In this document: positions 36,937 through 57,232 of the stretch, piece by piece | Layout: every line of letters begins with the position of its first letter | Numbering within the stretch: the first letter of the stretch is position 1 | Source: an uncultured Clostridia bacterium | GTDB taxonomy: Bacteria; Bacillota; Clostridia; Oscillospirales; Acutalibacteraceae | Reading direction: 5' to 3' | DNA length: 64,000 bases | NCBI GenBank assembly: GCA_944380675.1 | Contig: CALWIH010000002.1 | Span: forward strand, 280-64,279 | Translations under genes and position numbers: made by a program | Notes under the pieces: model-generated | The model's database searches: none | Told to the model about the DNA's origin: nothing | What the model saw: only the letters and a program-made list of their open reading frames with translations

Positions 36937-36962
36937 TGGTTTTTCTACCTCCCCTTGGAAAA

Positions 36963-41222: not shown

Positions 41223-41250
41223 AGGAAACGGTTCCTTTCTGTATTCAGAG

Positions 41251-41270: not shown

Positions 41271-41351
41271 GAAAAAGCATGGGAACGCCTGAAAAAGCCG
41301 CTGCTTCCCGCCGGACAGGCGAGAAGGTCAAGGGCGGACGCGCCGTCCGCC

Positions 41352-41804: not shown

Positions 41805-41890
41805 AGCATCACACCCCTGTTTTCATTGCGCGCCCGCCGGTCCGTACACTTCTGTGAAGGACCGGCTCGGGCCTTCATCTTCCTATCTGT

Positions 41891-41920
41891 ATTATAAGTC
41901 CCCCGCCTTCCTTTTGTAAA
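41891..41920 (-). promoter_or_regulatory. SigmaA-type promoter for the RsbW-NRPS-PP2C operon
   Basis: Minus strand TTTACA-N18-TATAAT. Confidence 0.55.
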
Positions 41921-41946
41921 GCAAGACGAAGCGTTCGGAAAAAAGA

Positions 41947-41964
41947 TTTAGAAAAATTTTAGAA
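41947..41964 (+). promoter_or_regulatory. Direct-repeat regulator box TTTAGAA-N4-TTTAGAA (copy 2)
   Basis: TTTAGAA AAAT TTTAGAA, 11-bp period, about 27 bp upstream of the -35 of the RsbW-NRPS promoter. Confidence 0.55.
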
Positions 41965-42011
41965 ATAAAACGCGCGCCCCGGATTTGCAGCGGAGCAAAT
42001 CCGGGGCGCGC
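41962..42011 (-). terminator. Rho-independent terminator of the DUF6514-like gene
   Basis: 17-bp stem GCGCGCCCCGGATTTGC / GCAAATCCGGGGCGCGC followed on the minus strand by GTTTTATTTC. Confidence 0.7.
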
Positions 42012-42055
42012 ATTGCGGGGAATCGCCTGTGGGACGGCTTGAGCGGAAGCGGCTT

Positions 42056-42307
42056 TCAGGCCGTTTCCGTTCGGAAATCCTCCGCCAGCTCGGGAAGGTT
42101 ATCCGCAAAAACCAGTCCCTCGGCCAGGAGCTTTGCAAAGTCTGTCGCCTTGCGAAGATTTTCGGGAGTGGAGGGAAGCAGCGTTTCCGAGACGCTGCGC
42201 TCCGCAATTTCCCGGATCTCAATGCCGATTCCCTTCTCGTCCTCCCGGACGACGTACTCCATGGTCAGATGATTCCATTTTGCTTGTCCTACTACCGTAC
42301 TTGTCAT
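42056..42307 (-). CDS. Small protein resembling DUF6514
   Basis: ATG 42307 after GGAGG; pattern GIGIEI...ATDFAKLLAEGLVFADNLPELAEDF; has its own promoter and terminator. Confidence 0.65.
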   Translation of the reverse strand: MTSTVVGQAKWNHLTMEYVVREDEKGIGIEIREIAERSVSETLLPSTPENLRKATDFAKLLAEGLVFADNLPELAEDFRTETA

Positions 42308-42368
42308 GCCTCCACACCTCAATCAAAGATGATAATACAGACTTACCAATCTGCCTTTGGCAATTCTT

Positions 42369-42397
42369 ATCTTACACAATGAAGAGAGGTCGGTCAA
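42369..42397 (-). promoter_or_regulatory. SigmaA-type promoter of the DUF6514-like gene
   Basis: Minus strand TTGACC-N17-TAAGAT. Confidence 0.6.
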
Positions 42398-42420
42398 TGG
42401 GTAAAAAGACGGAAGTTTGA

Positions 42421-42560
42421 TGTGAATAAACGCCACATTCTAAAGATCTTCTAAAAATCGCACATTTTGACTCTCAAAAAACAAAAATGCCTATATAATG
42501 CGAGATTTTATTTTCTGATTTTCCGATGCATGGAAGTTATTTCCAAAGATTTGTGGATAA
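42421..42560 (-). promoter_or_regulatory. Two consensus DnaA-box matches in an AT-rich spacer
   Basis: Minus-strand TTATTCACA (42421-42429) and TTATCCACA (42552-42560), both fitting TTWTNCACA. Confidence 0.4.
42438..42457 (-). promoter_or_regulatory. Direct-repeat regulator box TTTAGAA-N4-TTTAGAA (copy 3)
   Basis: Minus strand TTTTTAGAAGATCTTTAGAA, one mismatch to 4324-4343. Confidence 0.6.
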
Positions 42561-42602
42561 AAATTACTTGAAAATAAAACTTTAGTGTCAATTTACACCA
42601 CA

Positions 42603-43349
42603 TCAGGCGAGAGGGGAATTTTCCGCTCTCCCTTCGTCGGAGAGCGTCCATCCGCAGTCGTTGTGATAGATCATGAGACGCGTCATGCCGCCGTCGATGC
42701 AGACGTTTTCGCCCGTGATAAAGCCCGCCCTGTCGGAGCAGAGATAGAGAACCATGCTGGCGATGTCCAGCGGGTTCCCGACCCTGCCCGCCGGCTGCTG
42801 AAAGGCGTCCGGACCCTCGTAGCGGCGGAACGAGGTGTCGATCCATCCGGGCGAGATGGAGTTGACGCGCGCTTTTCCGGCGAGACTGACGGCGAGCGCG
42901 TGCGTCAGCGCGGAGATCCCGCCCTTCGCGGCGGTGTAGCTCTCTGTCTGCGGCTGACTCATCCTGTCGCGCGAGGAGGAGATGTTGACGACGGACGCGC
43001 CCGGCGCGAAAAGCGGCAGCAGGAGCTTCGTCAGGTAGAACGGCGCGGCGACCCCGACGCGCAGCGCGTAGTCGAATTCCTCGTACGAGCACGCGTCGAT
43101 CCCCTTCATGACGGGCAGCGCGTTGTTGACGAGAAAGTCGACCCGCCCGTATGCGCCGGCGATTTTTTCCGCGAAGCCCTCGAGCGCCGTTTTGTCTCCC
43201 ACATCCCCGACGAAGAAGTCGTTCGGCAGCAGGTCAATCACGCAGACCGACGCGCCCGCCTTGCGGAACTCGTCCGCGACGGTTTTTCCGATACCCCTTG
43301 CGCCTCCCGTCACGACGGCGACGCGCCCCTCAAACATTCCTTCAAACAT
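42603..43349 (-). CDS. Short-chain dehydrogenase/reductase (SDR)
   Basis: VVTGGARGIG, LVNNA, VNISS, YTAAKGG, VNSISPGWI, ITGENVCIDGG. Confidence 0.95.
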   Translation of the reverse strand: MFEGMFEGRVAVVTGGARGIGKTVADEFRKAGASVCVIDLLPNDFFVGDVGDKTALEGFAEKIAGAYGRVDFLVNNALPVMKGIDACSYEEFDYALRVGVAAPFYLTKLLLPLFAPGASVVNISSSRDRMSQPQTESYTAAKGGISALTHALAVSLAGKARVNSISPGWIDTSFRRYEGPDAFQQPAGRVGNPLDIASMVLYLCSDRAGFITGENVCIDGGMTRLMIYHNDCGWTLSDEGRAENSPLA

Positions 43350-43548: not shown

Positions 43549-45186
43549 ATGGGATCCATCATCGTCTTTCTTCTGGTCGTCCTCGCGATCTATGTGCTCG
43601 TCGTCTTTATCCTTCCGCTGCTCGCCGCGTTCGGCGGAGCGGCGGCTCTGGCGATTGCCGCTGCCGCGGCGGCCGCAGGACTGGTCTTCGCGGTGAAGAA
43701 CTACCTTGCGGCAATCCGAAGCTGTGTCAGCTTCACGCACTGGGAGTGGACGCGGGACGACGAGCCCGCCAGGCGCAGCTACTTCTTCGGCCCCGGCTTT
43801 GCCCAGCTGACCGGGGCCGTCCGCACCGCCTTTCGCCTCAATGCCGCGTCCGCCGGGAAGCTCCGCGCGGCGGGCAGGCGCATCAGGGGAACGAACGGCG
43901 GCGTCCTCGGCGCGGTGCGCGCGGCGGGCGGCGCGATCTTCACGACGGTTGCCTCCGCCTGTGTCTACTGCGCCGGGGCGATCCTCTGCGCCGCGTTCGC
44001 CGCCGTACACGGAGCCGTGACCTCGCTCGTCATGGCGGCGGCCGCCGCCGTCTTCTCAGTGGTGTGGCTCGCGGACAGGCTCTATCTTCTGTGGCGGAAA
44101 ATCCGTTCCGACTGCCCGCACTGCAAGACGAGGTTTCTGATTCCGGCCTTCCGCTGCCCCGCGTGCAGCGCCGTCCACAGGAAGCTCACCCCCGGGCCGT
44201 ACGGAATCTGGACGCACCGCTGCTCCTGCGGGGAGAAGCTCCCCGCCACCTTCCTGAACGGCAGATCCCGGCTCGAGGCGTTCTGCCCGCAGTGCGGCGC
44301 GCCGATGGAGGCCTCGGACGCCCGTCCCGTCGTGTTCCAGCTCGTCGGCGGCAGCAAGGCGGGGAAGACGGTCTATCTCTCCGCGTTTTTCCATGAGTAT
44401 CTGCGCCGTCTCGCCGGAAGGAGCGTGTCCGTCACCATTCCCGAGCGGTACAGGCCGTATTTCGACGAGCTCGAAGCCTGGTACGCGGGCGCGGACTGCC
44501 CCGCCACGGCGCAGCGGAACGCGCAGATGTACCCGCTCCTGATCGACGGCCCGCTCGGCGTCCGCCGTCAGTTTTCCATCTACGACGTCGCCGGGGAGCT
44601 GTTCGACGGCCATTCCGCGGACGCGGAGCTCGTGCAGCGCCAGTTCCACTACTGCGACGGACTTCTCTTTCTCCTCGACCCGTTCAGCGGCGGTTTGCTC
44701 CGCTCCGCGAGGCTTCGCGCCGGTGAAAGCCTCTCCGACTTCAGCGAGATGCCGCCGGAGGAGGCGGCGGAGCATTTCGTCAACTACCTGATCCGTACCG
44801 GCCACGCCAGATCCGGCGCACGCTGCCGGATCCCGCTCGCGGTTCTCATCGCGAAGGCCGACGAGCGGGAGGTGAAGCGCCGGATCGGCCCCGCCAGAAT
44901 CGGCAGCGTGTTCCGCAGCGCGCCGGAGCAGTACGGGACGTACGAAAACGCCCGCGACGCCGTCTGCCGCCAATTTCTGCTGGACGCCGGCCTCGCGGCT
45001 GCCGTAAACTGCCTCGAAACCTCGTTTGTCACGGTCCGCTATTTTCCCGTCAGCGCGATGGGACACGCGCCGGACGGCACGCCGTACGAGCCCTGGGGTA
45101 TCTCCGAGGCTGTCGAGTGGATGCTCCCCCTCGCGGACAGGGAGCTTGCCGCTCTCGTCGCGCTTCCCGCGCGCGGAACCATTTGA
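43549..45186 (+). CDS. Membrane-anchored Zn-ribbon TRAFAC-type GTPase (double-GTPase system type)
   Basis: N-terminal TM helices; CPHC, CPAC, CSC, CPQC; G1 GGSKAGKT, G3 YDVAGE, G4 IAKAD, G5 VSAMG. Confidence 0.8.
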   Translation: MGSIIVFLLVVLAIYVLVVFILPLLAAFGGAAALAIAAAAAAAGLVFAVKNYLAAIRSCVSFTHWEWTRDDEPARRSYFFGPGFAQLTGAVRTAFRLNAASAGKLRAAGRRIRGTNGGVLGAVRAAGGAIFTTVASACVYCAGAILCAAFAAVHGAVTSLVMAAAAAVFSVVWLADRLYLLWRKIRSDCPHCKTRFLIPAFRCPACSAVHRKLTPGPYGIWTHRCSCGEKLPATFLNGRSRLEAFCPQCGAPMEASDARPVVFQLVGGSKAGKTVYLSAFFHEYLRRLAGRSVSVTIPERYRPYFDELEAWYAGADCPATAQRNAQMYPLLIDGPLGVRRQFSIYDVAGELFDGHSADAELVQRQFHYCDGLLFLLDPFSGGLLRSARLRAGESLSDFSEMPPEEAAEHFVNYLIRTGHARSGARCRIPLAVLIAKADEREVKRRIGPARIGSVFRSAPEQYGTYENARDAVCRQFLLDAGLAAAVNCLETSFVTVRYFPVSAMGHAPDGTPYEPWGISEAVEWMLPLADRELAALVALPARGTI

Positions 45187-45202
45187 AGGAGGCGAATCAT
45201 CC

Positions 45203-45973
45203 ATGCCGTTAAGCGAACCGTTCACATCAGACACGACCTCGATCCCTGCCGATCCTCTGCCGGAGGACGCGCTTCCCCTTCCCGGGGAGGACGCTCCGCC
45301 CGGAGACGGCGCCCCGCCGCCCGCGCGGGAGGAGCCTCCGCGCTCGGCGGAGGAGCGGCTTTCCCGGTATCACGACGCCGTCCTCGAGGCGCTGTCCCGC
45401 GGGGACGCCGCGCGGGACGAGCTGCTTTCCCGCCTGGATCGCGTCCTCGAGGCGCAGGAGAGGAGCGAGCGCCGGCTCGCTCAGGCGCTCCGCGAGAACG
45501 CCGATTTTCAGATTCAGGTGCGCCGCGGGATGCAGCAGGAGCTCGACGCGCTCCGGAAGCAGCAGGAGGGCGAGCAGTTTACCCCGCTGCTGCGCGAGCT
45601 CGCGTCCATCTATGTGGAATACGGGGCGCTTCTCGACTGCGGGGAGCTGCCGGAGCGCCCCCGGAGCAATCTTCGCGCCCTGTTTGACCAGCTCGAGGAT
45701 CTGCTCGCCGAGTACGGCGCGCAGATCTGCCGCACCGAAACAGGCGCGGAGCGCCCGGCAAGGACGTGCAGAATTGCCGCCAAGCTTCCGACGGGCGACA
45801 GGGACAAGCACAACACGGTTGCCGCGAGCAGAAAGCCCGGTGTGCTCCGCGGGCGTACCGTGCTGTACCCGGAGCTCGCCGACGTCTTCGTCTTCGATCC
45901 GTCCCTCGCGGAGGAGGCGGCGCAGACAGCTGATTCAGAAACTGACCATGCAGAAGGAGGAAACGGAAAATGA
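45203..45973 (+). CDS. GrpE-like nucleotide exchange factor
   Basis: ATG 45203 after AAGGAGG; coiled coil, then LEDLLAEYGAQ...TGDRDKHNTVAASRKPGVLRGRTVLYPELADV (GrpE beta domain pattern). Its stop overlaps the Hsp70 start. Confidence 0.7.
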   Translation: MPLSEPFTSDTTSIPADPLPEDALPLPGEDAPPGDGAPPPAREEPPRSAEERLSRYHDAVLEALSRGDAARDELLSRLDRVLEAQERSERRLAQALRENADFQIQVRRGMQQELDALRKQQEGEQFTPLLRELASIYVEYGALLDCGELPERPRSNLRALFDQLEDLLAEYGAQICRTETGAERPARTCRIAAKLPTGDRDKHNTVAASRKPGVLRGRTVLYPELADVFVFDPSLAEEAAQTADSETDHAEGGNGK

Positions 45974-47604
45974 GTACCTACGGCATCGATCTGGGGACGA
46001 CCTATTCCTGCATCGCGGCGCTTGACCGCAACGGCAACCCCGAGGTGATCCGCAATCAGATGGATCAGAGCGACACGCTCGCCTCCGCCGTCTTCTTTGA
46101 GAGCGCCGACAACGTGGTCGTCGGCAGCAGCGCGAAGGAGAGGGTCGAGACGGACGGCGACCGCGTCGTCCAGTTCGTCAAGCGCGAGATCGGCAAGCCC
46201 GACGCGCACGTCTGGGAGTTCGACGGAAAGACGTACACGCCCGTTGAGATCAGCGCCCTGATTCTCAGGCGTCTCAAGCAGATGGTCGAGGAGCAGGGCG
46301 GCACGGTGGACAACGTGGTCATCACCTGCCCGGCGTATTTCGGCCTCGAGGAGCGCAGCGCGACGAAGCAGGCCGGCGAGCTGGCGGGCATGAACGTCCT
46401 GAATCTTATCAATGAGCCGACGGCCGCCGCGCTGAGCTACTGCGCGCGCCAGTTCCAGGAGGAGAGGACGATTCTCGTCTACGACCTCGGCGGCGGCACC
46501 TTCGACGTCACCATCGTCAAAATGTCGCTGGACACAAATCCCGACGGCAGCGAGGTGCAGCGGGTGACGGTCGTCGCCACGGGCGGCAACGACCGCCTCG
46601 GCGGCAAGGACTGGGACGACATCCTCTTTGACCACATCCTCCGCGCGTGCTGCGACGAGAACGGCCTCAGGCCCGAGGACATCGACGCCGAGACGCGCCA
46701 GCTCATCCGCAGCAAGGTGGAGCTCACGAAGACGAAGCTCAGCACCGCCGAATCCGCCAAGGTGAGAATCAGCGTGGAGGGAGCCATGACGAGCCTCGTC
46801 ATCACCCGGGAGGAGTTTGAGCGCATGACCTCCGACAAGGTGGCGCAGACGATGACCTATGTGGAGTCCGTGCTGCATGAGGCGGGGGATATTCCGATCG
46901 ACATGGTGCTGCTGGTCGGCGGCTCGACCTATATGCCGATGATCCGCAGCGCGGTGGAGGCGAGATTCCCCGGAAAGGTGCAGCTCCACGAGCCGAACCG
47001 CGCCGTCGCGATGGGAGCCGCTCTCTACGCGAATATGCTGGTCGACGAGGTGATGGGAGGCGGCGCGGCCTCCGCCGGCGAAACGGGGAAGAGCGAGACG
47101 CCCCAGCCGTCTCAGACGGGCGGCGGCAGCGGCATCACTGTCTCCGTCGTCGACCAGACGCCCCGCTCGTTCGGCCCCGGCGTTCTGAACGAGGCGAAGG
47201 AGTACATCGTCGACAACCTCATCAAGAGGGGAGAGGTCATGCCCGCCGCCTGCGTCAAGACGTACTATACCGCGGCGGACAACATGGAAAAGATTGTCCT
47301 GCGCGCCTTCGAGAGTATGTGCGTCGAGGACACTCTGACGCCCTGCGTCGACAACTTCGGCGAGCCGCAGCCCACGAATCCCGCGTACGGCGTGAAGCTC
47401 CTCGGCGAGCTGGAGCTGCTGCTCCCGCCGAATACGCCGAAGGGCGCTCCGATCGAGGTGACCTTCCAGGTGGACGCGGTCGGCGTGTACGTCAAGGCCG
47501 TCAATCTCTCGACCGGCGAGCAGGTCGACACGACGCTGCGCATGGACTCCGACGTCGACACGGCAGCCAGCGCCGCCAATCAGCTCACCGTCTCCGCGGA
47601 GTAA
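45970..47604 (+). CDS. Hsp70-family protein (non-housekeeping, no C-terminal lid)
   Basis: GIDLGTTYS, VITCPAYF, INEPTAAA, YDLGGGTFDV, LGGKDWD, LLVGGST; ends at 544 aa after the beta-sandwich. Confidence 0.93.
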   Translation: MSTYGIDLGTTYSCIAALDRNGNPEVIRNQMDQSDTLASAVFFESADNVVVGSSAKERVETDGDRVVQFVKREIGKPDAHVWEFDGKTYTPVEISALILRRLKQMVEEQGGTVDNVVITCPAYFGLEERSATKQAGELAGMNVLNLINEPTAAALSYCARQFQEERTILVYDLGGGTFDVTIVKMSLDTNPDGSEVQRVTVVATGGNDRLGGKDWDDILFDHILRACCDENGLRPEDIDAETRQLIRSKVELTKTKLSTAESAKVRISVEGAMTSLVITREEFERMTSDKVAQTMTYVESVLHEAGDIPIDMVLLVGGSTYMPMIRSAVEARFPGKVQLHEPNRAVAMGAALYANMLVDEVMGGGAASAGETGKSETPQPSQTGGGSGITVSVVDQTPRSFGPGVLNEAKEYIVDNLIKRGEVMPAACVKTYYTAADNMEKIVLRAFESMCVEDTLTPCVDNFGEPQPTNPAYGVKLLGELELLLPPNTPKGAPIEVTFQVDAVGVYVKAVNLSTGEQVDTTLRMDSDVDTAASAANQLTVSAE

Positions 47605-47614
47605 CGCTCCGGAG

Positions 47615-47658
47615 GAAAAGAAGCGCGTCCTGCCCGACCGCAGGACGCGCTTCTTTTC
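47615..47658 (+). terminator. Rho-independent terminator after the first Hsp70
   Basis: 19-bp perfect inverted repeat GAAAAGAAGCGCGTCCTGC-N6-GCAGGACGCGCTTCTTTTC. Confidence 0.75.
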
Positions 47659-47761
47659 GTCCTCCCGCTAAAAAAACGCCCGGGAGGAATGCGATACAAT
47701 AGGTTCACAGAAAAAATGAGACGCTGCGCCGCCCCGACGCGGGCGGCAGGGAGGGACTGCC

Positions 47762-50011
47762 ATGGGAATCAGAGTAGGAATCGATCTCGGGACGACATAC
47801 TCCGCCGTCGCCGTCATGGACGAGAGCCGGGGGAGGCCTCAGATTGTCCCCAACACGCTCGGCGAGCGGATCACCCCCTCCTTCCTTCAGTTTACGGAAG
47901 ACGGCGGAGTCGTCGTCGGGACGGAGGCGAAGGAGGCCTTCGAGGCCGGAGAGCCCGGCTGCGCCTCCGTCTTCAAGCGAAGCATGGGCAGCGGGGAGGC
48001 GTACTGCTCCTTTTACGGAAAGACGTATACGGCGGAGGATTTGTCCGCGATCCTTCTGCGCCATCTCAGGGAGGAGGCGGAGCGCGTCACCCGCCGGACG
48101 ATCGACGAGGCGGTCGTCACGGTGCCCGCGTACTTTTACCACAGGGAGCGCCAGGCAACGCTCAGCGCCGCGAAAAAGGCCGGTCTGCGCGTCCGCCAGC
48201 TGATCAACGAGCCGACGGCCGCAGCCATGAACTACGGCGCAGACCATTGGCGTGAAAACGCGCGCGTCCTCGTGTACGACCTCGGCGGCGGGACGTTCGA
48301 CGTCACGCTCGTCGAGATGCGCGCGGGAAACCGCATGGAGACGCTGCAGACCACCGGGGATCACACCCTCGGCGGCAAGGATTGGGACGCGCGCGCCGCC
48401 GCTCTGCTCGAGGCCCGGATCGAGGAGGAGACCGGCCTCTCCGCGAAGGACAGCCCCGCCCTGCGCCAGCTCGTGAGCAGAAGCGCGGAGAGCGTCAAAC
48501 GGCAGCTGACCTCCTGCAGCACGGCCTCCGTACGGCTTGACCTGCCGGGCTGCGGAAAGTACGACGCCCTGGTGACGCTCGAGGAGTTCGAGCGCTGCAC
48601 CGGCGACCTTCTCGAGCGGACGGGCGCTCTGTGCGAAAGCCTCCTGCGCGGCCTCGCGATTACCTGGCGGGACGTCACCGACGTCCTCCTCGTGGGCGGC
48701 TCGACCAGGATGCGCCAGGTGCCGTCGTACCTCAAGCGGATCAGCGGACATACGCCGCTTTCTCAGGTGAATCCCGACGAGGCGGTCGCCCTCGGCGCCG
48801 CCATACAGGCGTGCCTGCCGCTGCCGGAGTACAGCGTGATTGCTCTGCAGCCGCCCGGCGGGAAGGGAGAGCCGTCTGCCTCTCCCGCGTTCCCCTTCCC
48901 GAGGCCCGCGGCAAAGCCCGCCGGAGAGAAGCGTTTTCTCCCCGGCCCCGTGGGACGGGAGACGCCCCTCGCGAACGCCCTTGCCATGCGCCACGCAGAC
49001 GTTGTCGCTCACGCGATGGGCGTCATCGCGGTCAACGCGGCGGGGACGGCCTACATCAACAAGACCATCGTCCCCGCCAACCAGAGGATCCCCGTCAAAT
49101 GCGCCGAGGCGTTTCATTTTTACACCGCCTCCCATGGGGACAACGAGCTGGAGATCTATGTCCTGCAGGGGACGAAGCCCCCGCTCGAGTGCCATATTAT
49201 CGGCAAATACGTCGTCTCGGGGATCCGGCACGACCGCAGGGCGAATCCGACGATCATCCGGATTCAGTACAGCTACGATGCGAGCGGCATGGTGCACGTC
49301 CAGGCGCGTCAGGGGGACGGCGAGGCGGATCTCCCGATCCGCGAGGAGCCCGTCCCCCGGGACATGAGCCGCTTCGGCAGGCCGATTGACCCCGCCGAAA
49401 GGACGCCCGCCGCGGAGCCGCTCTCCCTCGTGCTGGCGGTCGACGTCTCCGGCAGTATGCGGGGCGGGCCGATCCGCGACGCGCTGCGCGCCATGTGCCG
49501 TTTCACGGACAGCTTCGACGACTACCCCGGCGACGTCCGCATCGGCGTGATTGCGGTCTCCGACAAATCGCTGATTGTGCAGCCGCTGACGGACGACCTC
49601 GATCGGTGCAGGGAATCCATCCGCTCCATCACCTGCGGCATGACGGGCACAAGCAATTTCGCGCATCCGTTCGACGACCTCCGGTCGATGCTTGAGGACA
49701 GGCCGGGCAGGCGGATGGGCATCGTCCTCGCGGACGGCGTCTGGGCGTATCAGGACGAGGCCGTCCGCGCCGCGAAGGCGTGCCACCGCAGGCGGATCGA
49801 CATCGCCGGCGTCGGCTTCGGCTCCGCGGACGAATCGTTTCTCAGAAAAATCAGCTCCGGCGACGTGCGCTCCATGCTGGTGAAGCAGAGCGAGCTCGAG
49901 AGGAGCTTCGGCAGAATCGCGCAGGAGATCGGCGCGGGAAGAAAGGGAAAGACGGGCCGCGCCGGGGGCGAGACCGGCACGGAGACGTGGGCGGCCGTCA
50001 GCGAGCGCTGA
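47762..50011 (+). CDS. Hsp70-vWA fusion protein
   Basis: Hsp70 motifs GIDLGTTYS, TVPAYF, YDLGGGTFDV, LLVGGST; C-terminal vWA with MIDAS LAVDVSGSM, VLADG and IAGVGFG. Confidence 0.92.
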   Translation: MGIRVGIDLGTTYSAVAVMDESRGRPQIVPNTLGERITPSFLQFTEDGGVVVGTEAKEAFEAGEPGCASVFKRSMGSGEAYCSFYGKTYTAEDLSAILLRHLREEAERVTRRTIDEAVVTVPAYFYHRERQATLSAAKKAGLRVRQLINEPTAAAMNYGADHWRENARVLVYDLGGGTFDVTLVEMRAGNRMETLQTTGDHTLGGKDWDARAAALLEARIEEETGLSAKDSPALRQLVSRSAESVKRQLTSCSTASVRLDLPGCGKYDALVTLEEFERCTGDLLERTGALCESLLRGLAITWRDVTDVLLVGGSTRMRQVPSYLKRISGHTPLSQVNPDEAVALGAAIQACLPLPEYSVIALQPPGGKGEPSASPAFPFPRPAAKPAGEKRFLPGPVGRETPLANALAMRHADVVAHAMGVIAVNAAGTAYINKTIVPANQRIPVKCAEAFHFYTASHGDNELEIYVLQGTKPPLECHIIGKYVVSGIRHDRRANPTIIRIQYSYDASGMVHVQARQGDGEADLPIREEPVPRDMSRFGRPIDPAERTPAAEPLSLVLAVDVSGSMRGGPIRDALRAMCRFTDSFDDYPGDVRIGVIAVSDKSLIVQPLTDDLDRCRESIRSITCGMTGTSNFAHPFDDLRSMLEDRPGRRMGIVLADGVWAYQDEAVRAAKACHRRRIDIAGVGFGSADESFLRKISSGDVRSMLVKQSELERSFGRIAQEIGAGRKGKTGRAGGETGTETWAAVSER

Positions 50012-50038
50012 GCACGGCGCAGGAAACAGGAAAGGGGG

Positions 50039-53000
50039 ATGGCCTTGGAGAGGCGGAACTATTTTGAAATCCTCGGGCTGGAGTTCGACCCTCCCGAGCG
50101 CAGCCCGAGAAAGATCGAGCAGGCTGTCGGGGACTGGAAAAAGAGGACGCAGGAAATGCTCGCGAACGAGTCCGACAGCGCCCGCCGCGCGGCTCTCTCC
50201 GAGGAGCTGGCCCTTCACGCGCAGATGACGGCTGCGCTGAGCGACGGCAAGTCGAGAGCCGCCGAGGCGCGCGCGCTCAAGGAGCGGAGAGTCGCCGAGC
50301 TCGAGCGCCTCCTCGACATCCTGCTGACGGGCCGGACCGGCACGCCGGAGGTGACGAACGCCCAGATCCGCGGCGTCCGCGCCAAGCTCGGGCTTTCCGC
50401 CGGGACGATCGAGGAGACCTACCGGAAAAAGGGCTTTACGGTTCGCCCGCGCGGCAGCGGCGCCGATCTGAAGGAGGCGTTCCTCTCCCCGGTGGTTGCG
50501 GAGAGCGTCAGCGGAAAGCTCGCCTGTCTCCGCACGATGACGAACCCCGGCTTTTCCTGGGCGCCGAAGGTATCCGATCTGTTCGATCTGGCCTGCTATT
50601 TCAGCGGGGGCTCGGAGCGGGACGCGGCGGCGTTCCGCAGGAGAAGGACGGCGGAGCTGCGCGGCGTCATGGAATCCGGCTCCGCGCAGTACGCGAGCGA
50701 TATGAGCGAGCAGGGGCATCTGATGGCAGACCTGTTTACCGCCGGGGCGACGCAGGTGTTCGACTGCGAGGAAAGCAGGCGGCGGTATGAGCAGACGCTC
50801 GAGCGGGAAAAGCTGAGCGGCTTGTTTGCCCAAATCAAGTCCGCTCCCGAGGTCTTCAAGCGGGATCCCTATTTCGCGGAGAGCTGCCTGCAGATGATTC
50901 AGAAAAGCTTCCCAGACTATGATCTGGCGCTTGCGCTTTACAACCATGAGGCCGGCCTGCAGCTCGACCCCTACGAGCCCGCCGAGGCGCTGATCCATGT
51001 GACCTGCGCCTCCTGCAGGACGCCGGCGGCCTTCCGTACGCGCGAGGAGGCGGAGCGCGGGCAGTGCTCCGTCTGCGGCGCGCCGCTGTACCTTGTCTGC
51101 CCGCGCTGCGGGAAGAAGGTGCCCGCCTCCGCCATCCGCTGCGCGTGCGGCTTTTCCATCGGCGAGCTGCCGTTTTTTGAGGAATACTGCGAGGCGGCGC
51201 GGTCGGCGCTCCGGGAGATGAACCTCCCGGAGGCGAGAAGGCAGCTTTCCGGCGCGGAGAACGCCCATCCCGGCCATCCGAAGCTCGCCGCGCTCAGGCG
51301 GGAGCTCGAGGCCGCGGAGGAGAAATACCGCAGGCCGCTTCGTGAGCTGCAGGCGCAGATCGGGGCGGGGAGGCTGTACACGGCGCAGAAGACGATCGCC
51401 TCCCTCGCCGCCGCGCTGCCGCAGCTCAACCTCGAAGCGCAGAGCAGGCTTGTCCGCGAGGGGCTCGCCGGGGCGAAGAGGCGAATGCCTTCCGCCGGCC
51501 TTTCTCCGCGCGAGAAGGGGAACCGCTGCGCCGAGATCCTCGAGACTGTTTCCGACTATCCGCCCGCCCTCGCGCTCCTCGCCCAGTGCCGCCCGTCCGC
51601 GCCGCGCTCGCTCTGCGCGGCCTTCTCCGCCGGGGAGCCGCCGGTCTGCACGCTGACGTGGAGCGCCGCCGGCGATCGCGGCGTGACGTACTGTGTGGCG
51701 CGCGCGAAAAACGGTGTCCCGCGCCGCAGCACCGAGGGGGAGCTGCTTGCCTCCGGCCTGACCGCGCTCGAATATCGGGACAAGACGGTCGAGCCGGGCG
51801 TGCGCTACGGCTACGCCGTGTTCGCCCAGCGGGCCGGCGTCACGTCCGATCCCGCTGTCTGCGAGGCGGAGCGCCTCAGCGAGCTCGACCCCGCCTATGT
51901 CAAGGCGTCGGCGGAGGACGGCGCGTGCCGCTTCAGCTGGGTGCTGCCGAAAAACTGCGCGGGCGTACGGATTCTCCGCCGCTGCGGCGCGATTCCCGGC
52001 GACCGCCCCTCGGCGGAGTGCACGCTTCTCACGGAGTCTGTTCAGGCAAATTTCATCGATTCCTCCGCGGTGAACGGCACGACGTACGGCTACCGCCTCC
52101 AGTGCGCGTACCCCGGAGCCGGGGGCCTTCGCTTCAGCGAGGGACGCACCTTCCTGCTCCGTCCGGAGCGTCCGCCCGCCGCCCTCCGGAATCTCGCCGT
52201 GACGGCGGAAGGGCGGACGGTCACGGTACGCTGGACGCCCTCGGGAGAGGGGGACGCTGTTCTGGTGCGGGAGAGCGCCTCCCCGCCCGGCGCTTCCTGC
52301 TCCGGGAGGCTTGTCTCCGCGTCGGAGCTCAACGCCGTCCTCGGCGGCAGAACGCTCGCGCAGGCGAAAAGCTCCGCGGGACAGTGCCGCTTTGAGATAC
52401 CGCCCGACTCGGCGATCTCGCTGGCGGTGGCCGTCCTTTCCGGCTCCCGGGCGATGGTGTGCGGATTTTTCCGCGCCGCGAGCGTCGGCAGGCTTGAGCT
52501 CAGCCGGACGGGCACGCGCATGGAGGGCGCGCGCCTGCAGATCACGCTGCGCAGACTGCCCGCCCGTCTTGAGCGGATTCATTACCTCGTTTCCGGACCG
52601 GCGGGGCGGCGGTGGGCGGGGGCGGACGACGCGCGCCGCGGCGCTCTCCCGTCCGTCGCCGTGGGAGAGTACAAACGGGACGGCATGATCCTTGTCGAGA
52701 ATCCCCCGAAGGGCGAGCTGTGCCTCTCCGTCATCGGGCAGTACCGGATGCCGGACGGGAGCGCCGTCTTTTCCGACGCCGCGAAGCTGCAGGTCAGCAA
52801 CCGGCCGAAGGAGAAAATCTCCTATTCGCTCAGCTGGGAAAGCGGTCTGTTTTCCGCGCGGGCGAGGTCGAAGCGGTGCAGGCTCTGCGTCTCCTGCGAG
52901 GCGGCGCGCACGCCTGTGCTCAGGCTGGCGTACCGCACCGACGGGCATATCCCGATGCAGCTTTCGGATCCGAGAACGGTGGTGCTCCACACGATTCGGG

Positions 53001-53164
53001 AATCCGACAGAGGCTTCCCCGCCGGAACGTACGTCCACGTTATTCCGGACTCTGTCTGGAAGCAGATCCGTCCGGGGACGGAGCTGCGCCTGATGCTGAG
53101 CGAGGAGGATATGGCCGCCTATGAGCTTGTTCCCGGAAGTCTCAGCCAGCTCAGAGTACCGTAA
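50039..53164 (+). CDS. Multidomain protein: J-domain-like N-terminus, Zn ribbons, TPR-like helices, fibronectin-III repeats
   Basis: RNYFEILGL start (no HPD); CASC, CSVC, CPRC, CAC; FN3-type LTWSA...YRDKTVEPGVRYGYAVF, FSW...FIDSSAVNGTTYGYRL, NLAVTAEGRTVTVRW. Confidence 0.7.
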   Translation: MALERRNYFEILGLEFDPPERSPRKIEQAVGDWKKRTQEMLANESDSARRAALSEELALHAQMTAALSDGKSRAAEARALKERRVAELERLLDILLTGRTGTPEVTNAQIRGVRAKLGLSAGTIEETYRKKGFTVRPRGSGADLKEAFLSPVVAESVSGKLACLRTMTNPGFSWAPKVSDLFDLACYFSGGSERDAAAFRRRRTAELRGVMESGSAQYASDMSEQGHLMADLFTAGATQVFDCEESRRRYEQTLEREKLSGLFAQIKSAPEVFKRDPYFAESCLQMIQKSFPDYDLALALYNHEAGLQLDPYEPAEALIHVTCASCRTPAAFRTREEAERGQCSVCGAPLYLVCPRCGKKVPASAIRCACGFSIGELPFFEEYCEAARSALREMNLPEARRQLSGAENAHPGHPKLAALRRELEAAEEKYRRPLRELQAQIGAGRLYTAQKTIASLAAALPQLNLEAQSRLVREGLAGAKRRMPSAGLSPREKGNRCAEILETVSDYPPALALLAQCRPSAPRSLCAAFSAGEPPVCTLTWSAAGDRGVTYCVARAKNGVPRRSTEGELLASGLTALEYRDKTVEPGVRYGYAVFAQRAGVTSDPAVCEAERLSELDPAYVKASAEDGACRFSWVLPKNCAGVRILRRCGAIPGDRPSAECTLLTESVQANFIDSSAVNGTTYGYRLQCAYPGAGGLRFSEGRTFLLRPERPPAALRNLAVTAEGRTVTVRWTPSGEGDAVLVRESASPPGASCSGRLVSASELNAVLGGRTLAQAKSSAGQCRFEIPPDSAISLAVAVLSGSRAMVCGFFRAASVGRLELSRTGTRMEGARLQITLRRLPARLERIHYLVSGPAGRRWAGADDARRGALPSVAVGEYKRDGMILVENPPKGELCLSVIGQYRMPDGSAVFSDAAKLQVSNRPKEKISYSLSWESGLFSARARSKRCRLCVSCEAARTPVLRLAYRTDGHIPMQLSDPRTVVLHTIRESDRGFPAGTYVHVIPDSVWKQIRPGTELRLMLSEEDMAAYELVPGSLSQLRVP

Positions 53165-53178
53165 AAGGAGGATGAAAA

Positions 53179-54288
53179 ATGGGCTTTCGTGAATCTCATG
53201 TCCTGTGTCCGAGCTGCCTGCACGAGCTGCGCAGCGGCGACATGGTGATGGCCTGCCCGATCTGCGGGACGCACGCCGAGCCGACGGCAATGGATCTGCT
53301 TCGGCACAGGCCGCCCAGGTGCGGAAAAAAGGGCTGCGGCGGAATTGCCAGCGTGCGGCTGTGCCGCTTCTGCAAATCGCCGCTCCCCGCCGATTTCCTC
53401 GGCTGCGGCAGACATCTGCGCTTCAGTCTGCTGGGCGTCACGGGGGCGGGCAAAACCAATTTCCTGACGACCATGCTTCACGAGCTGCGCAGTGCTGCCG
53501 GATCCCCGTGGGTCGCTTCGCCGATGGATTCGCAGACGGCGGATCTCTTCCGGGAGAACGATCGCGCCGTCTATGAGCGGGGAGAGCCCGCGGCGGCCTC
53601 TCCCGCCGGCGTCGCCCCGCCGCCGCAGATTTGGCGGATCAGGGATCGGACGATGATGACCTCCTCGTTTATCCCGTCCTACTCCATGACGATCTTTGAC
53701 GGCGCGGGGGAGGACTGCGAGCGCATCAACCCCGCCATCAGCCGGTATATCGACGGCTCGAAGGCGCTTGTCATCCTGATCGACCCGCTGTCTCTGCCCG
53801 GCGTCGCGCGAACCATCTCGTCCGACGTTCTGAGCTGGTCCACGACGGCTTCCCACGGCGCGGACGTTTCCGCCGACATGGTGGACGGCCTCGCCAACTA
53901 TGTCCGCCAGGGCTGCGGACTCGTTCCCGGAAAGCTGATCAACCGGGACGTCGCCGTCGTCTTCACGAAAATTGACGCCGTGCGGGAAAGCTTCGGCACC
54001 GCGACGGTCATGCAGTCGAGCCCCCATCTCGCCGCGGGAGGCTTCGTGAAGGCGGACGCCGACGCCGTGGACGCCGAGATCCGCGACTGGCTGGAAAGCC
54101 GCGGGGAGAGCGCCTTCCTCAACGCGATTGAGACGAATTTCCGCGCGGACAAAATCCGTTTCTTCGGCGTCTCGAGCTTCGGTCATCCCCCCACCGGAAG
54201 CTCCCGTCTCGGGCGTGTCGTGCCGCATCGCGTACTCGATCCGCTGGTCTGGATGCTCTCAAAGGAGCATATCGTCCGCACTGTCTGA
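53179..54288 (+). CDS. Soluble Zn-ribbon TRAFAC-type GTPase (second GTPase)
   Basis: CPSC, CPIC, CGKKGC, CRFC; G1 GVTGAGKT, G3 FDGAGED, G4 FTKID, G5 VSSFG. Confidence 0.85.
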   Translation: MGFRESHVLCPSCLHELRSGDMVMACPICGTHAEPTAMDLLRHRPPRCGKKGCGGIASVRLCRFCKSPLPADFLGCGRHLRFSLLGVTGAGKTNFLTTMLHELRSAAGSPWVASPMDSQTADLFRENDRAVYERGEPAAASPAGVAPPPQIWRIRDRTMMTSSFIPSYSMTIFDGAGEDCERINPAISRYIDGSKALVILIDPLSLPGVARTISSDVLSWSTTASHGADVSADMVDGLANYVRQGCGLVPGKLINRDVAVVFTKIDAVRESFGTATVMQSSPHLAAGGFVKADADAVDAEIRDWLESRGESAFLNAIETNFRADKIRFFGVSSFGHPPTGSSRLGRVVPHRVLDPLVWMLSKEHIVRTV

Positions 54289-54330
54289 GAAACGCCGCGC
54301 GGTACCGGCGCAGGAAAGGATGGTTGTCTC

Positions 54331-56895
54331 ATGCTCGATCAGTTGATCTATACGCGCTGCTTCCCTCACCGCGACCTGAAGCTTCGCGGTCAGGTGGTGC
54401 GCAGCGACGGGTTCGGCGTCTTCTCCGTGAGCGCCGGGCTGCTTTCCGATGACTGCGCCGTCGACCTCGGCTTTCTGCAGGCGCGGCTGGCCGTCCCGAA
54501 CGGGGCGAAAGAGTCGTCGGAGCCGGGGCTGTTTTCGTCCTACGAGTATGTGCAGGCCGGACCCGACACGTACGCCCTCACTCTCGAGACAGCCCGCCCG
54601 CGCTGCACCGTCCCGCGCGCGGACGGGAAAAGCCACCGCTCCGGCACCTATCTCAAGCAGTGCCTCATCGGCAAGCCGGAGGGCCGCCCCGCCGACTGGT
54701 TCGGCGCGTCCGTCTGGGACGCCCACAGCCTCCCGGAGAACGACTACTATCTCGCTGGGGAAGCCGCGCCGCCGCTGCTGCCGCAGGTTTCCGCCGCGCC
54801 GCAGGGCGGGACGGCGACGCCGGAGCGCGTGCGGGCGTTCGTCCGCGGCGGCCGCGGGGAGGCCGTGCGCGCGTGCCTGTGGTTTCTCCTCTCCGAATTC
54901 GAGAAGCCCGAGGAGGAGCGCAGGGTTCTCCTCATCCGGGATTTGCCGCAGAACGTGGAGCTGTGGATCGCCGCCGTCTCCTGCGGGCTCTCCGCGCCGA
55001 TGGCGAGGCGGCTCACCTTCTCGACCAACCGCTCGCGGCTCGGCGCGCAGGCGGAAAGCGCCCTGTTCTGCGGCGCGGACGCCGGGGGGAGCGCCTCGCC
55101 GGTGACGCGCCGCCCGATCTGCATGATCGCCGGCTTTCACCCGCGCGACCCCTTCTGCGCCGGCGTCAGGGCGTTCCCGTCGGGGCGCTTCGTCCTCCTC
55201 GACGGGGAGACGAAGACGGTGAGCTGGGAGACGGACGCTTCCGTCCGCCGCCCGTATTACGACGCCGTCCTGCGAAACGACGCGGAGCTCAGCGACTTCT
55301 GCGGCGCGGTGCTGCCCGCGCTGCCGATCCGCGAGCCGACGAGCCGCCTGCCCGACCTCTTTGACGCCAGCCGGTATCTGCTCGACGCCCGCCATCCGCC
55401 GGAGAGCTGGGCATACGGAGAGACGGTTCGCTCCCTCGACGCGCTGCTGCGCTTCGGAGCGCCGGAGAGCGAGGCGCTGAGCGCCTGGCTGCTCCGCGGG
55501 ACTCTCACGGGTTACCCCGACCGCTTCGCCGCGCAGGACGAGGCGCGCGGCTTTCCGCTGCTCTCGCATATCAGAACGCTCGCCGGAGCCGCCCGTTCCG
55601 CCCTTCCCGGGCTGTTTTGCGGCGATGCCCTGGACGCGTATGCGCGGCAGATTGAGGAGTGCTCCGCTGCGTACGCCGGGACGCTTCTCGAGCTGTATTT
55701 TCTCCTGCTTTCCGGGACGAAGGGCGGGCTCGCTTCCATCCGGGAGAGCGGCGAAAAGCGCCGCTTCGTCTCCGTCTGCCTCGCAGCCCTTCTCGACGAC
55801 CGCGGCCGCCTGTCCGCCGCGCTGCAGGCGCTCGGCGCTGTCCCCGGCCTCGCGGAGGACGCCGTCCTTTCCGCGGCGCAGCATCTCGAGGAGCGCAGCC
55901 CTTCGAGATGCGGAGACTGGTGGGAGGCCGTCCTCTCGCTCGGCGGCGGCGCGGCGGAGGTCTGCCGCGCCTTGTGCCGGTCAGGCTCCGCCGATCTCGC
56001 GACGGTGGAGCGCCTTCTCGCCGGACGGGCGGAGCGGGCCGGCTCCTTTGACCGGGAGCTCGCGGACGCGTTCCGGAAGTCTGCCGCCGCGCTCGGCAGA
56101 AAACCCGAATCGGGGCGGCTTCTGTTTGCCGCATTGCTGCGGGCATCCGCTCCCGGGGAGCTGCCGCTCGCCGTCTCCTCCATCCGCGAGAGCGGCCTGA
56201 GCCCTGACACGGAGAGAGCGCTGTTCGCCGCGGCGGACGCGAAGCTCCCGCCCGGCGGCTTCGATCCGGACGGCCCGGTCTGCCGGGCGCTGGCCGGGTG
56301 GGCGGACGCGCTCGGCCTCCCCTCGAGGACGGTCTCGCTCTGCGGGCTGAGGAAAACCCTCTCCCGGGAGCGCAGGCCGGAGCGGGCCGCGGCGGCGGCG
56401 CGCGCCTTCTGCGCGAAGGGCTTTTCGGCGGACGGCGTGCCGCTCTCCGGCGGCTGCTTCGGCAGCCTCACCGCCGCGGCGGCGTCGCTTCGCAGCGCAG
56501 AGCTTCATCTCGCGCTGCTCTGCCTGTTTTCCGACACGGGGGACGCGCTCTGCCGGTATGCGGACGCCTACGCGGCGCAGGTGCTCGCCGCCACGAAAAA
56601 GCGCGAGCTTGCCGGGCAGCTTGCCGCCCTGTGCGGAGCGATGCTGCTCCCCGCGAAGCTCCCGGGCCGCTCCGCCGCCTTCGTTTCACAGGCGCAGGAA
56701 TGCCTTGAGCGCGCGGCGGTGCGGCGGCTTGCGCCGTACGTCAGGCCCGCGCTCACGGAGCAGGCCGAAAAGCTCGATACCTGTGCCCCGGCGGTGCGGG
56801 AAAAGCTGCTCGCTCTCCTGCGGGAGGCGGGCGCGAAATCTGCTTCGGAAAAGGGCGTCGGCGCGTTCCTGCGGAGGCTGTTCGGGAAGGCGTAA
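54331..56895 (+). CDS. GTPase-associated protein (GAP1-N2/M-like) with helical C-terminus
   Basis: Starts MLDQLIYTRC...GFGVFS, as I recall for GAP1-N2 domains; RRLTFST motif; directly follows the second GTPase. Confidence 0.6.
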   Translation: MLDQLIYTRCFPHRDLKLRGQVVRSDGFGVFSVSAGLLSDDCAVDLGFLQARLAVPNGAKESSEPGLFSSYEYVQAGPDTYALTLETARPRCTVPRADGKSHRSGTYLKQCLIGKPEGRPADWFGASVWDAHSLPENDYYLAGEAAPPLLPQVSAAPQGGTATPERVRAFVRGGRGEAVRACLWFLLSEFEKPEEERRVLLIRDLPQNVELWIAAVSCGLSAPMARRLTFSTNRSRLGAQAESALFCGADAGGSASPVTRRPICMIAGFHPRDPFCAGVRAFPSGRFVLLDGETKTVSWETDASVRRPYYDAVLRNDAELSDFCGAVLPALPIREPTSRLPDLFDASRYLLDARHPPESWAYGETVRSLDALLRFGAPESEALSAWLLRGTLTGYPDRFAAQDEARGFPLLSHIRTLAGAARSALPGLFCGDALDAYARQIEECSAAYAGTLLELYFLLLSGTKGGLASIRESGEKRRFVSVCLAALLDDRGRLSAALQALGAVPGLAEDAVLSAAQHLEERSPSRCGDWWEAVLSLGGGAAEVCRALCRSGSADLATVERLLAGRAERAGSFDRELADAFRKSAAALGRKPESGRLLFAALLRASAPGELPLAVSSIRESGLSPDTERALFAAADAKLPPGGFDPDGPVCRALAGWADALGLPSRTVSLCGLRKTLSRERRPERAAAAARAFCAKGFSADGVPLSGGCFGSLTAAAASLRSAELHLALLCLFSDTGDALCRYADAYAAQVLAATKKRELAGQLAALCGAMLLPAKLPGRSAAFVSQAQECLERAAVRRLAPYVRPALTEQAEKLDTCAPAVREKLLALLREAGAKSASEKGVGAFLRRLFGKA

Positions 56896-56936
56896 TAAGG
56901 AGAGCGTCCATAGACGCACAGAGAGGAGGAACATCA

Positions 56937-57191
56937 ATGGCCGGCCCCAGAAAGGTCACCCGGGAGGAGTACGACGAGTTCCGCTCCCGGATGGAGGAGA
57001 AATACGGATACGAGGGAATGTCCGACGAGGAGAAAAAGGACTTCGACGAGAAGATTGACAAGGTCGCCGTCGTCGGGGAGAAGACCGAGAACGCCGACGA
57101 CACCGGCGACAATGAGGACGACGAGCTCGAAAAGGGCGAGTTTGACGACGGTCATCCTCGCGGCGGCGACGACGATGAGGAAATCCGCTGA
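56937..57191 (+). CDS. Small highly acidic protein
   Basis: 84 aa, GAGGAGG RBS, D/E-rich; codon pattern and position fit a real gene. Confidence 0.6.
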   Translation: MAGPRKVTREEYDEFRSRMEEKYGYEGMSDEEKKDFDEKIDKVAVVGEKTENADDTGDNEDDELEKGEFDDGHPRGGDDDEEIR

Positions 57192-57232
57192 CGCAGAACA
57201 GCGCGGCGAACCACGGAAGGGAGGAGTCAACA

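Follow-up and report, generated by a model that had tools for sequence, protein, structure and literature searches.

Why would a bacterium keep two GTPases and a private set of Hsp70 chaperones in one run of genes, and what would such a set act upon? The question is raised by a locus in a 64,000-nucleotide stretch of DNA (the window, whose first letter is position 1 throughout) from an uncultured Clostridia bacterium of the Acutalibacteraceae (assembly GCA_944380675.1, contig CALWIH010000002.1). The initial annotation, made from the sequence alone, had described seven genes at 43549-56895 as a double-GTPase conflict system with its own complete Hsp70 machine. In fact, the unit is larger than seven genes: it is a predicted single-strand operon of twelve, 43549-62785, and the added part encodes a HerA/FtsK-type ATPase, a predicted nuclease toxin and its putative immunity protein. 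We envision that the locus is an intracellular, GTP-gated immune switch with a nuclease output, and we give this reading a probability of about 0.55.

The limits of the operon and its nuclease arm

The seven genes of the initial annotation (G1 to G7) are all present on the plus strand, with a third-position G+C of 0.82-0.90 and successive spacings of 16, -4, 157, 27, 14 and 42 bp. These gene calls stand; the end at 56895 does not. Past G7 the plus strand carries on through G7b, G8, G9, G10 and G11 up to 62785, with spacings, from G7 onwards, of 41, 41, 6, -8 and -13 bp. Throughout the twelve-gene run the gaps are thus 42 bp or less, except for the one of 157 bp, and Shine-Dalgarno-like sites lie upstream. 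It is because of these tight gaps, together with a conserved tail and unrelated flanks beyond G11, that we treat the twelve genes as one unit. A scan of the locus for promoters and terminators returned sites no more numerous than in shuffled sequence and was uninformative on the operon limits.

How widely is this arrangement kept? Twenty-six loci (designated L with a number) were fetched through GAP1 homologs and then searched with the window proteins. The order G1-G7 recurs in at least eight independent loci, at 27-78% protein identity, among Lachnospiraceae, Oscillospiraceae, Ruminococcus, Clostridiaceae and Aerococcaceae. Thus the order is not chance, and the seven genes that had been proposed to form a set do co-occur. 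G4 is missing from one locus, and an extra Hsp70 consisting only of the nucleotide-binding domain (NBD) is found in L002 and L014 at the place where the window has its 157-bp gap. Four minimal loci (L018-L020 and L027) have G1, G6 and G7 and keep of G5 only a short protein that corresponds to its last ~130 residues. Homologs of G2 were also found in Leptotrichia and Erysipelotrichaceae.

Thirteen distinct loci have enough sequence past GAP1 for the tail to be looked for, and in 10 of them, across families, G7b-G11 are present 3' of GAP1; in L002 an insertion sequence (IS) separates GAP1 from the tail, which is still present. Beyond G11 the genes differ in every locus and are mostly housekeeping. 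In the closest relative (L006, an uncultured Oscillospiraceae metagenome-assembled genome with 95% DNA identity), the DNA homology with the window ends at 62781, and G11 ends at 62785. We considered that other effectors might take the place of the tail where it is missing, and rejected this: the tail-less loci have unrelated housekeeping or surface-protein genes downstream.

What does the tail encode? The initial annotation had invoked an effector without naming one, and its coordinates stopped short of the likely candidate, namely the genes for the HerA-like ATPase, the EssD-like nuclease, the immunity protein and the transglutaminase-fold protein that follow directly downstream. G8 (57233-60676; 1147 residues) has an N-terminal domain, a Ser-rich linker and one P-loop domain of the HerA/FtsK type, with Walker A GSSGSGKS at 581-588 and Walker B VLEEAH at 811-816, and its TTG start is supported by N-terminal homology. 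It matches Pfam DUF87 at 39.2 bits (cut-off 23.2), the PADLOC models mad8 (E 9e-17) and HerA (E 5.5e-15) and, in the PDB, HerA 8wiv (E 2e-9) and 4d2i. Its matches to TraG/TrwB are weak, and it has neither a transmembrane (TM) segment nor an FHA match.

G9 (60683-61267; 194 residues) is a predicted free-standing nuclease toxin that matches Pfam Endonuclease_NS_2 (PF13930; E 5e-32) and the nuclease domain of EssD, a toxin of the S. aureus type VII secretion system (T7SS; 8guo, E 1.4e-22), and carries GGHLIA at 99-104. Before the nuclease domain it has only ~45 acidic, poorly conserved residues, and no further Pfam match was obtained there. G10 (61260-61697; 145 residues) overlaps G9 by 8 bp and is a YezG-like putative immunity protein: its match to the Pfam family (E 3.4e-4) scores 21.2 bits, just below the cut-off of 21.7, and its homolog in L003 is recorded with PF04634. 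G11 (61685-62785; 366 residues) matches Pfam Transglut_core (E 1e-5), a papain-like fold, with candidate Cys, His and Asp residues in GICSG (242-246), GHQWN (276-280) and HVDP (290-293).

The remaining tail gene, G7b (56937-57191; 84 residues), encodes a small acidic repeat protein, with 41-bp gaps on both sides and GGAGG upstream. Its position in the ten loci is always between the GAP1 and HerA ATPase genes, and among these loci its motif, YGYxxMSDEEKxxFD, is repeated one to four times. The whole repeated unit spans ~35 residues, reads (E)YDxFRxxMxxKYGYxxMSDEEKxxFDxxID, is very acidic, is present in 1-4 copies and matches no family.

Two kinds of known machinery resemble this arm. The type VIIb secretion system (T7SSb) of S. 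aureus has a nuclease toxin-immunity pair, EssD (EsaD) and EsaG, and an FtsK-type ATPase, EssC. As in that system, the operon joins a homologous nuclease domain and a YezG/DUF600-type immunity protein to an adjoining ATPase of the FtsK/HerA superfamily. In contrast to it, the 194-residue toxin has no long N-terminal or LXG-type/WXG targeting region, the ATPase is a single HerA-like P-loop domain without FHA or TM helices, and no WXG100, EsaA or EssA/B genes are found in the operon. The second kind comprises HerA-based defence and repair machines (HerA-NurA, HerA with Sir2 or DUF4297, and mad8 of MADS), in which a HerA-type P-loop ATPase likewise adjoins a nuclease gene. G8 differs from these in scoring far under the family cut-offs (32.8 against 800 bits for NCBIfam HerA_antiphage) and in having an extra 550-residue N-terminal region with the Ser-rich linker; the nuclease here is of the polymorphic-toxin type and comes with an immunity protein.

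The GTPase core and its chaperone set

At the head of the operon, G1 (43549-45186; 545 residues) encodes a predicted membrane-anchored zinc-ribbon DO-GTPase. Four N-terminal TM-like segments lie within residues 1-51 and 128-178, and CxxC pairs follow at 189, 203 and 246; then come the P-loop GGSKAGKT (267-274), Walker B DVAGE (346-350) and AKAD (435-438). No C-terminal TM helix was seen. The match to Pfam DO-GTPase2 is borderline (26.9 bits for a cut-off of 27; E 4.5e-6), that to DO-GTPase1 has an E of 1.4e-4, and the G1 homologs in L003 and L005 are recorded with PF19975/PF19993. G6 (53179-54288; 369 residues), a double-zinc-ribbon DO-GTPase 30% identical to G1 (E 3e-11), is its soluble paralog: three CxxC pairs (10, 26 and 62) stand ahead of a P-loop GVTGAGKT (86-93), with DGAGE at 174-178 and TKID at 263-266, and DO-GTPase1 is matched at E 0.0077.

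G7 (54331-56895; 854 residues) starts 42 bp 3' of G6 and encodes a GAP1-like protein, with a match to Pfam GAP1-M of 27.6 bits (cut-off 24) and GAP1-M matches in 29 of 29 homologs. Almost all invariant columns of the family lie in residues 1-376, the C-terminal half being the least conserved. Of the profile checks proposed in the initial annotation, GAP1-M therefore scores above its cut-off and the DO-GTPases are borderline, while GAP1-N2 (PF20013) fails: it matches G7 neither in a six-frame search of the genome (E 10) nor by hmmscan of residues 1-190 (E 5), and it is also unmatched in 29 G7 homologs. GAP1-C (PF20052) likewise stays unmatched across the genome, at E 10, and in the 29 homologs. 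The N-terminal domain of G7 may be a divergent N-type domain, and the GAP1 of its clade a divergent form; with PF20013 and PF20052 both unmatched, the GAP1-N2 subtype is assigned from context alone. In L007, a second, partial copy of the GAP1 N-terminus (13524-14231), 41% identical to G7 residues 1-237, lies between the full GAP1 and HerA genes.

Does this core belong to a known class? DO-GTPases and GAP1 were defined as conflict systems, by computation only, by Kaur, Burroughs, Iyer and Aravind (eLife 2020; PMC7159879). Their GAP1-N2 type, present in 904 organisms, combines two GTPases, one bearing a pair of N-terminal zinc ribbons and the other four TM helices at its N-terminus, with a protein whose FNIII repeats evolve rapidly and stand in place of GASH. 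In its 'second theme', which covers ~14% of GAP1-N2 neighbourhoods and occurs in actinobacteria and firmicutes, HSP70 and GrpE are added, a subset has a second HSP70, and the FNIII protein is fused to a DnaJ or TPR domain. Because of the DO-GTPase1/2 and GAP1-M matches and a domain layout as in that description, we assign the locus by sequence to the DO-GTPase/GAP1 'GTPase-centric' conflict-system class, HSP70-GrpE theme, which was thus already catalogued by prediction. The class proposed in the initial annotation, paired-GTPase/GAP1 loci predicted to be NTP-regulated conflict systems, is confirmed by these matches and this layout; the dedicated exchange factor with two Hsp70s, held there to be the unusual part, turns out to be part of the published theme.

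The correspondence with that theme is extensive. Both have paralogous TRAFAC GTPases in which a Glu follows Walker B, a zinc-ribbon form and a form with four TM helices; both have GAP1 downstream of a GTPase, an HSP70, a GrpE, a second HSP70 and a J-headed repeat protein, and both are found in Firmicutes. The window departs from the theme in the unmatched PF20013 and PF20052, in a G1 without C-terminal TM helix, in a J-like head without the HPD tripeptide and in a second Hsp70 that has the beta substrate-binding subdomain (SBD-beta) and a vWA domain, whereas that of the theme is NBD-only. The main text of Kaur et al. (PMC7159879) contains no HerA ATPase, Endonuclease_NS_2/YezG pair, transglutaminase or small acidic protein, and the text of its supplement none of the terms searched. 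New here are the extension of the unit to twelve genes, its nuclease effector arm, the connection to the dynamin-HerA cassettes described below and an 'Hsp70 machine' that is lidless and HPD-less.

In the same paper, the GAP1-N2 themes are called non-overlapping. In L003 (19331-22727) and L004 (15607-19003), a protein kinase, a small vWA protein and a PP2C phosphatase directly follow the transglutaminase gene; this trio is the defining set of the 'third theme' of Kaur et al., here beside a system of the Hsp70 theme.

The chaperone genes start with G2 (45203-45973; 256 residues with a disordered N-terminus), whose likely start is the ATG 16 bp 3' of G1, with GGAGG. A start at an overlapping TTG (45026) was rejected, since the alignment with homologs begins only near residue 60. 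A minus-strand open reading frame at 45227-45811, picked on third-position G+C, was likewise discarded: it shadows G2, for which 80 homologs were found, none carrying annotation. Is G2 a GrpE, as the initial annotation had it? By sequence it is not recognisable as one: Pfam GrpE (PF01025) gives only E 0.22 and 11.6 bits (cut-off 25.8), the G2 family profile found no GrpE among PDB sequences, and an hhalign comparison with the genome's own GrpE is not significant (E 0.53). By fold it is. An AlphaFold2 model built with 28 homologs has a core pLDDT (predicted confidence score) of 88-96 and the layout of GrpE, in which a very long helix is joined by two shorter ones and a small beta domain. Foldseek returned GrpE for all of its top 12 PDB matches (E 7e-7 to 3e-2; 1dkg, 3a6m, 4ani, 9bls and 8gb3 included), from E. 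coli, Thermus, Geobacillus, M. tuberculosis and human mitochondria. On the strength of this model, G2 is to be regarded as a GrpE-fold, exchange-factor-like protein diverged past sequence recognition.

G3 (45970-47604; 544 residues) matches Pfam HSP70 over residues 5-359 (E 2e-85) and has the ATPase motifs DLGTT, KREIG, NEPTAA and DLGGGTFD all intact. Its residues 409-525 align weakly to DnaK 409-507, that is SBD-beta, and the protein ends ~20 residues further on, leaving no room for a lid. A PADLOC match to PDC-M61B (E 4e-8) was discounted as generic Hsp70 similarity. In G4 (47762-50011; 749 residues), matches to Pfam HSP70 (E 1e-97) and VWA (E 2e-14) flank a segment, residues 432-519, that matches DnaK SBD-beta (E 8e-8); here the vWA domain occupies the place of the alpha-helical lid. 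Its metal-ion-dependent adhesion site (MIDAS; DVSGS, 561-565) and ATPase motifs are intact. Judged by these alignments and motifs, then, both Hsp70s are lidless and predicted to be ATPase-competent. Lidless DnaK-like domains fused to protease-effector modules have been proposed to act as sensors, not refolders (2025 preprint, PMC12642450). Since a housekeeping hrcA-grpE-dnaK operon is present on another contig (C131) of the same genome, the G2-G4 set is additional to the housekeeping one.

The third member of a canonical cycle would be the J protein, and here the likeness is partial. G5 (50039-53164; 1041 residues) appears to be a scaffold made of a J-like head, helical segments, a double zinc ribbon, TPR-like segments and a beta-sandwich (FN3-like) part. 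The AlphaFold2 model of residues 1-330 is all-helical (pLDDT 87), the N-terminal residues NYFEILGL resemble the start of a J domain, and in Foldseek, where the head has no match significant by E-value, the only high-probability local matches are J domains (2dmx and 2qsa, 0.91; 2dn9, 0.84), all with E >1. The loop after helix II reads N-E-S-D in G5, with a consensus of LANE[TS] across 13 homologs; HPD occurs nowhere in G5, nor at the J-loop position in the 13 homologs. Among 15 members of the G5 family, the double zinc ribbon (DZR) is matched in 14, Pfam fn3 weakly in three (best E 0.0026) and TPR in two; Fn3_SaeA_3rd is faint in the L005 homolog, and a W...Y.Y.V pattern repeats across G5 residues 520-830. 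The description of G5 as a J-like/zinc-ribbon/FN3 protein thus stands for the zinc ribbon, stands by fold probability only for the head, for which 'J-like' is a fair label given the model, and is weak for FN3.

Set beside canonical DnaK-DnaJ-GrpE, the system shares catalytic NBD motifs, SBD-beta, a GrpE-fold exchange factor and a partner headed by a J fold. It differs in having no lid and no HPD, in a GrpE similarity undetectable by sequence and in the replacement of the DnaK inter-domain linker by a long Gly/Ser/Pro-rich segment. To call it a complete Hsp70 machine, as was done initially, is an overstatement, since the J-like domain has no HPD and neither Hsp70 has a lid.

Divergence between distant loci is greatest in GAP1 (27-43% identity) and the immunity protein (37-47%), and least in the Hsp70s (55-78%) and HerA (62-71%); L005 stands furthest apart both in the core and in G8-G11. 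Ratios of nonsynonymous to synonymous divergence (dN/dS) come from one close pair only, the window and L006. In this pair, G5 has a synonymous divergence (dS) of 0.28 and its dN/dS is highest, at 0.5-0.7, in residues ~617-800 of the repeat region; G6 has a dS of 0.23 and a dN/dS of 0.15, G7 0.065 and 0.32, G8 0.074 and 0.06, and G10 0.05 and 0.56. Because dS is three- to four-fold higher in G5-G6 than in G7-G8, the comparison (window 50807-62781) suggests a recombinational exchange of the G5-G6 segment, which would make the operon a mosaic.

HerA-type ATPases beside other GTPase pairs

Is the association of a GTPase pair with a HerA motor peculiar to this operon? We surveyed the context of G8 relatives in six loci. 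Homologs that include the N-terminal domain, 33-37% identical over ~830-970 residues, were found in four Clostridia genomes without any DO-GTPase: L042 (G355:C2), L043 (G294:C47), L044 (G081:C5) and L045 (G029:C59). In all four, a common operon encodes two dynamin-family GTPases (~450 and ~760 residues), a small tail-anchored protein and the HerA-like ATPase, of ~1080 residues. The operon then carries a nuclease toxin, which is Colicin-DNase/WHH in two loci, GH-E in one and unclassifiable in the fourth, and immunity genes of the SUKH or SUFU type, in the pairings WHH/SUKH and GH-E/SUFU. No paper describing a dynamin-pair/HerA/toxin operon was found in the literature.

These dynamin-pair cassettes and the window operon thus share a homologous ATPase, a GTPase pair upstream of it and a nuclease toxin with an immunity gene directly downstream. 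They differ in that the cassettes have GTPases of the dynamin family, no GAP1, Hsp70/GrpE or transglutaminase, and a toxin family that varies between loci. In the contexts examined, close G8 homologs always come with a GTPase pair (in four loci of the dynamin type and one of the tubulin/DO-GTPase type) and never alone, and where the context is readable the ATPase usually comes with a toxin-antidote pair as well. This recurrence suggests an undescribed 'GTPase pair + HerA + toxin' design.

Two further loci hold more distant relatives. L046 (G213:C18:4000-23900) is a DO-GTPase locus of the tubulin theme, headed by a 924-residue HerA-like ATPase and followed by genes for a vWA-YtkA protein, a 1173-residue tubulin-like protein, DO-GTPase2 and then a large open reading frame; further downstream lie a second tubulin-like gene and a transglutaminase-like stretch (L061). 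In L060 (G309:C30), two weak Hsp70-like genes at 4101-10686, 21-23% identical to the NBD of G4, stand a few kilobases upstream of a distant HerA-like ATPase and may represent another Hsp70-HerA pairing.

A proposed GTP-gated switch and its rivals

How might the parts work together? We propose that G1, G6 and GAP1 would form a membrane-proximal GTP switch, and that the fast-evolving G5 repeats, the C-terminal half of GAP1 and the vWA domain would bind a protein that is foreign or has been altered by infection. Driven through their cycle by the private GrpE and anchored by way of the J-like head, the lidless Hsp70s would not refold clients but hold or remodel the resulting complex. The output would be a HerA hexamer together with the nuclease, which its immunity protein would keep silent until the switch fires. 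The nuclease could then be freed through stripping by Hsp70 or through cleavage by the transglutaminase-fold protein acting as a protease, and would degrade DNA, leading to abortive infection or to the destruction of invading DNA. The sensing, threshold and remodelling roles put forward in the initial annotation are likewise hypothetical. Several signs have the look of conflict: the system is rare and patchy, GAP1 and the immunity protein diverge fast, and dN/dS peaks in the G5 repeats and in G10.

Going further, one may speculate that the DO-GTPase/GAP1/Hsp70 set and the dynamin pair are alternative 'heads' of one undescribed HerA-nuclease engine, and that the lidless Hsp70s with their GrpE pull the immunity protein off the DNase once the GTPase switch fires. 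This is a tentative idea, and we would not bet on it; if it were true, it would be the first instance of an Hsp70 cycle that sets off a bacterial toxin, whether in abortive infection or along a new route of export.

A number of observations weigh against the immune switch. Full-text literature searches found no published experiments on DO-GTPases or GAP1, in agreement with what the initial annotation had said of the class, and a 2026 preprint from the laboratory of Kaur et al. still cites only the 2020 analysis. The PADLOC defence models match none of the core genes, no G6 homolog was found in the phage and plasmid collections, and the flanking genes are mostly housekeeping, so that the check for a defence island proposed initially turned out negative. 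No gene or window in the L006 pair has a dN/dS >1. The Pfam models GAP1-N2 and GAP1-C leave G7 unmatched, and a canonical J-stimulated Hsp70 cycle is doubtful with a G5 head that has no HPD. The seven-gene core occurs without the HerA-nuclease arm in L012, L017 and L022; this arm is thus not obligatory. Finally, toxin and immunity families of the EssD/EsaG type are secreted and inter-bacterial, and would fit an offensive role equally well.

Such an offensive role is the main rival. The locus would then be a toxin-delivery apparatus for inter-bacterial antagonism, in which the HerA/FtsK-type ATPase would select the small DNase, and Hsp70/GrpE would take off its immunity protein and hold the toxin in an unfolded state. 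Reshaping or opening the membrane, so that the toxin can be exported or released in vesicles, would be the task of the membrane GTPase or, in the sister cassettes, of the dynamin-like pair, and the immunity protein would protect kin. The families of G9 and G10 speak for it, G9 being homologous to the nuclease domain of the secreted T7SS toxin EssD and G10 belonging to the matching YezG immunity family. So does the behaviour of the sister cassettes, which swap the toxin/immunity pair while ATPase and GTPases stay constant, a hallmark of polymorphic toxin loci. FtsK/HerA-family ATPases also power T7SS and type IV secretion system (T4SS) export (PMC3482391), and G8 has its weak TraG/TrwB matches. 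Yet no trafficking domain, LXG/WXG or other, is recognisable in G9; TM segments are absent from G8, the four-TM G1 is the sole membrane protein, and nothing in the operon resembles a channel. Moreover, the toxin family is constant across the 10 Hsp70-type loci, which have no orphan toxin or immunity arrays, and the core occurs without any toxin in the three tail-less loci. We consider delivery unlikely, yet it deserves serious thought.

Could the operon instead be two separate systems, a GTPase/Hsp70 system (G1-G7) and a HerA-nuclease-immunity module (G7b-G11), that travel together on one horizontally moving block? The tail-less loci and the minimal ones would be natural in that case, as would the G8 homologs in genomes without DO-GTPases and a G7-G8 spacing that differs between loci (0.3 to 5 kb) and in L002 accommodates an IS. 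What makes this improbable is the constancy of the association: close G8 homologs are never without a GTPase pair in the contexts examined, gene order and strand do not vary among 10 loci of four families, and L005 is the most divergent locus for both halves. The gaps at the junction measure a mere 41 bp in the window, and terminators are no more frequent there than expected by chance. Very improbable, finally, is a non-conflict role as a specialised membrane-proximal machine for proteostasis, envelope or cytoskeleton-like assembly. The Hsp70, GrpE and J-like parts, the vWA and FN3-like interaction domains and the housekeeping flanks would all suit it, but a G6-like GTPase is found in only 2 of 400 sampled Clostridia genomes and in none of 14 sampled genomes of the same family or order, and G2 homologs cross phyla (Leptotrichia, Erysipelotrichaceae). 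The operon also encodes a nuclease toxin and its immunity protein, and the genome has its housekeeping grpE-dnaK elsewhere.

Whichever reading holds, the class is among the larger predicted families of bacterial conflict systems without an experimental entry point, and no effector had been named for its Hsp70-GrpE theme. The window locus, a compact, complete and conserved form of the theme, offers one, a DNase with its antidote beside a HerA motor, as an obvious read-out, and ties that motor to the dynamin-linked toxin cassettes. Thus several questions are made testable: what a dedicated lidless Hsp70/GrpE set does outside folding, how a GTPase pair gates a toxin, and whether the target is an invader or a neighbouring cell.

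Upstream of G1, the window contains a plus-strand cluster (20547-34953) that resembles a contractile injection system or phage tail, with CIS_tube genes at 24548-25363 and 25376-26203, a YQBQ-like gene at 26229-27419, Baseplate_J at 31730-33868, Tail_P2_I at 33892-34953 and several large open reading frames without a Pfam match. Between this cluster and G1, four genes lie on the minus strand (35500-43349): a SpoIIE-type PP2C phosphatase (35500-36936), a single-module non-ribosomal peptide synthetase (C-A-T-reductase; 36963-41222), an anti-sigma-type kinase matching HATPase_c_2 (41352-41804) and a short-chain dehydrogenase/reductase (42603-43349).

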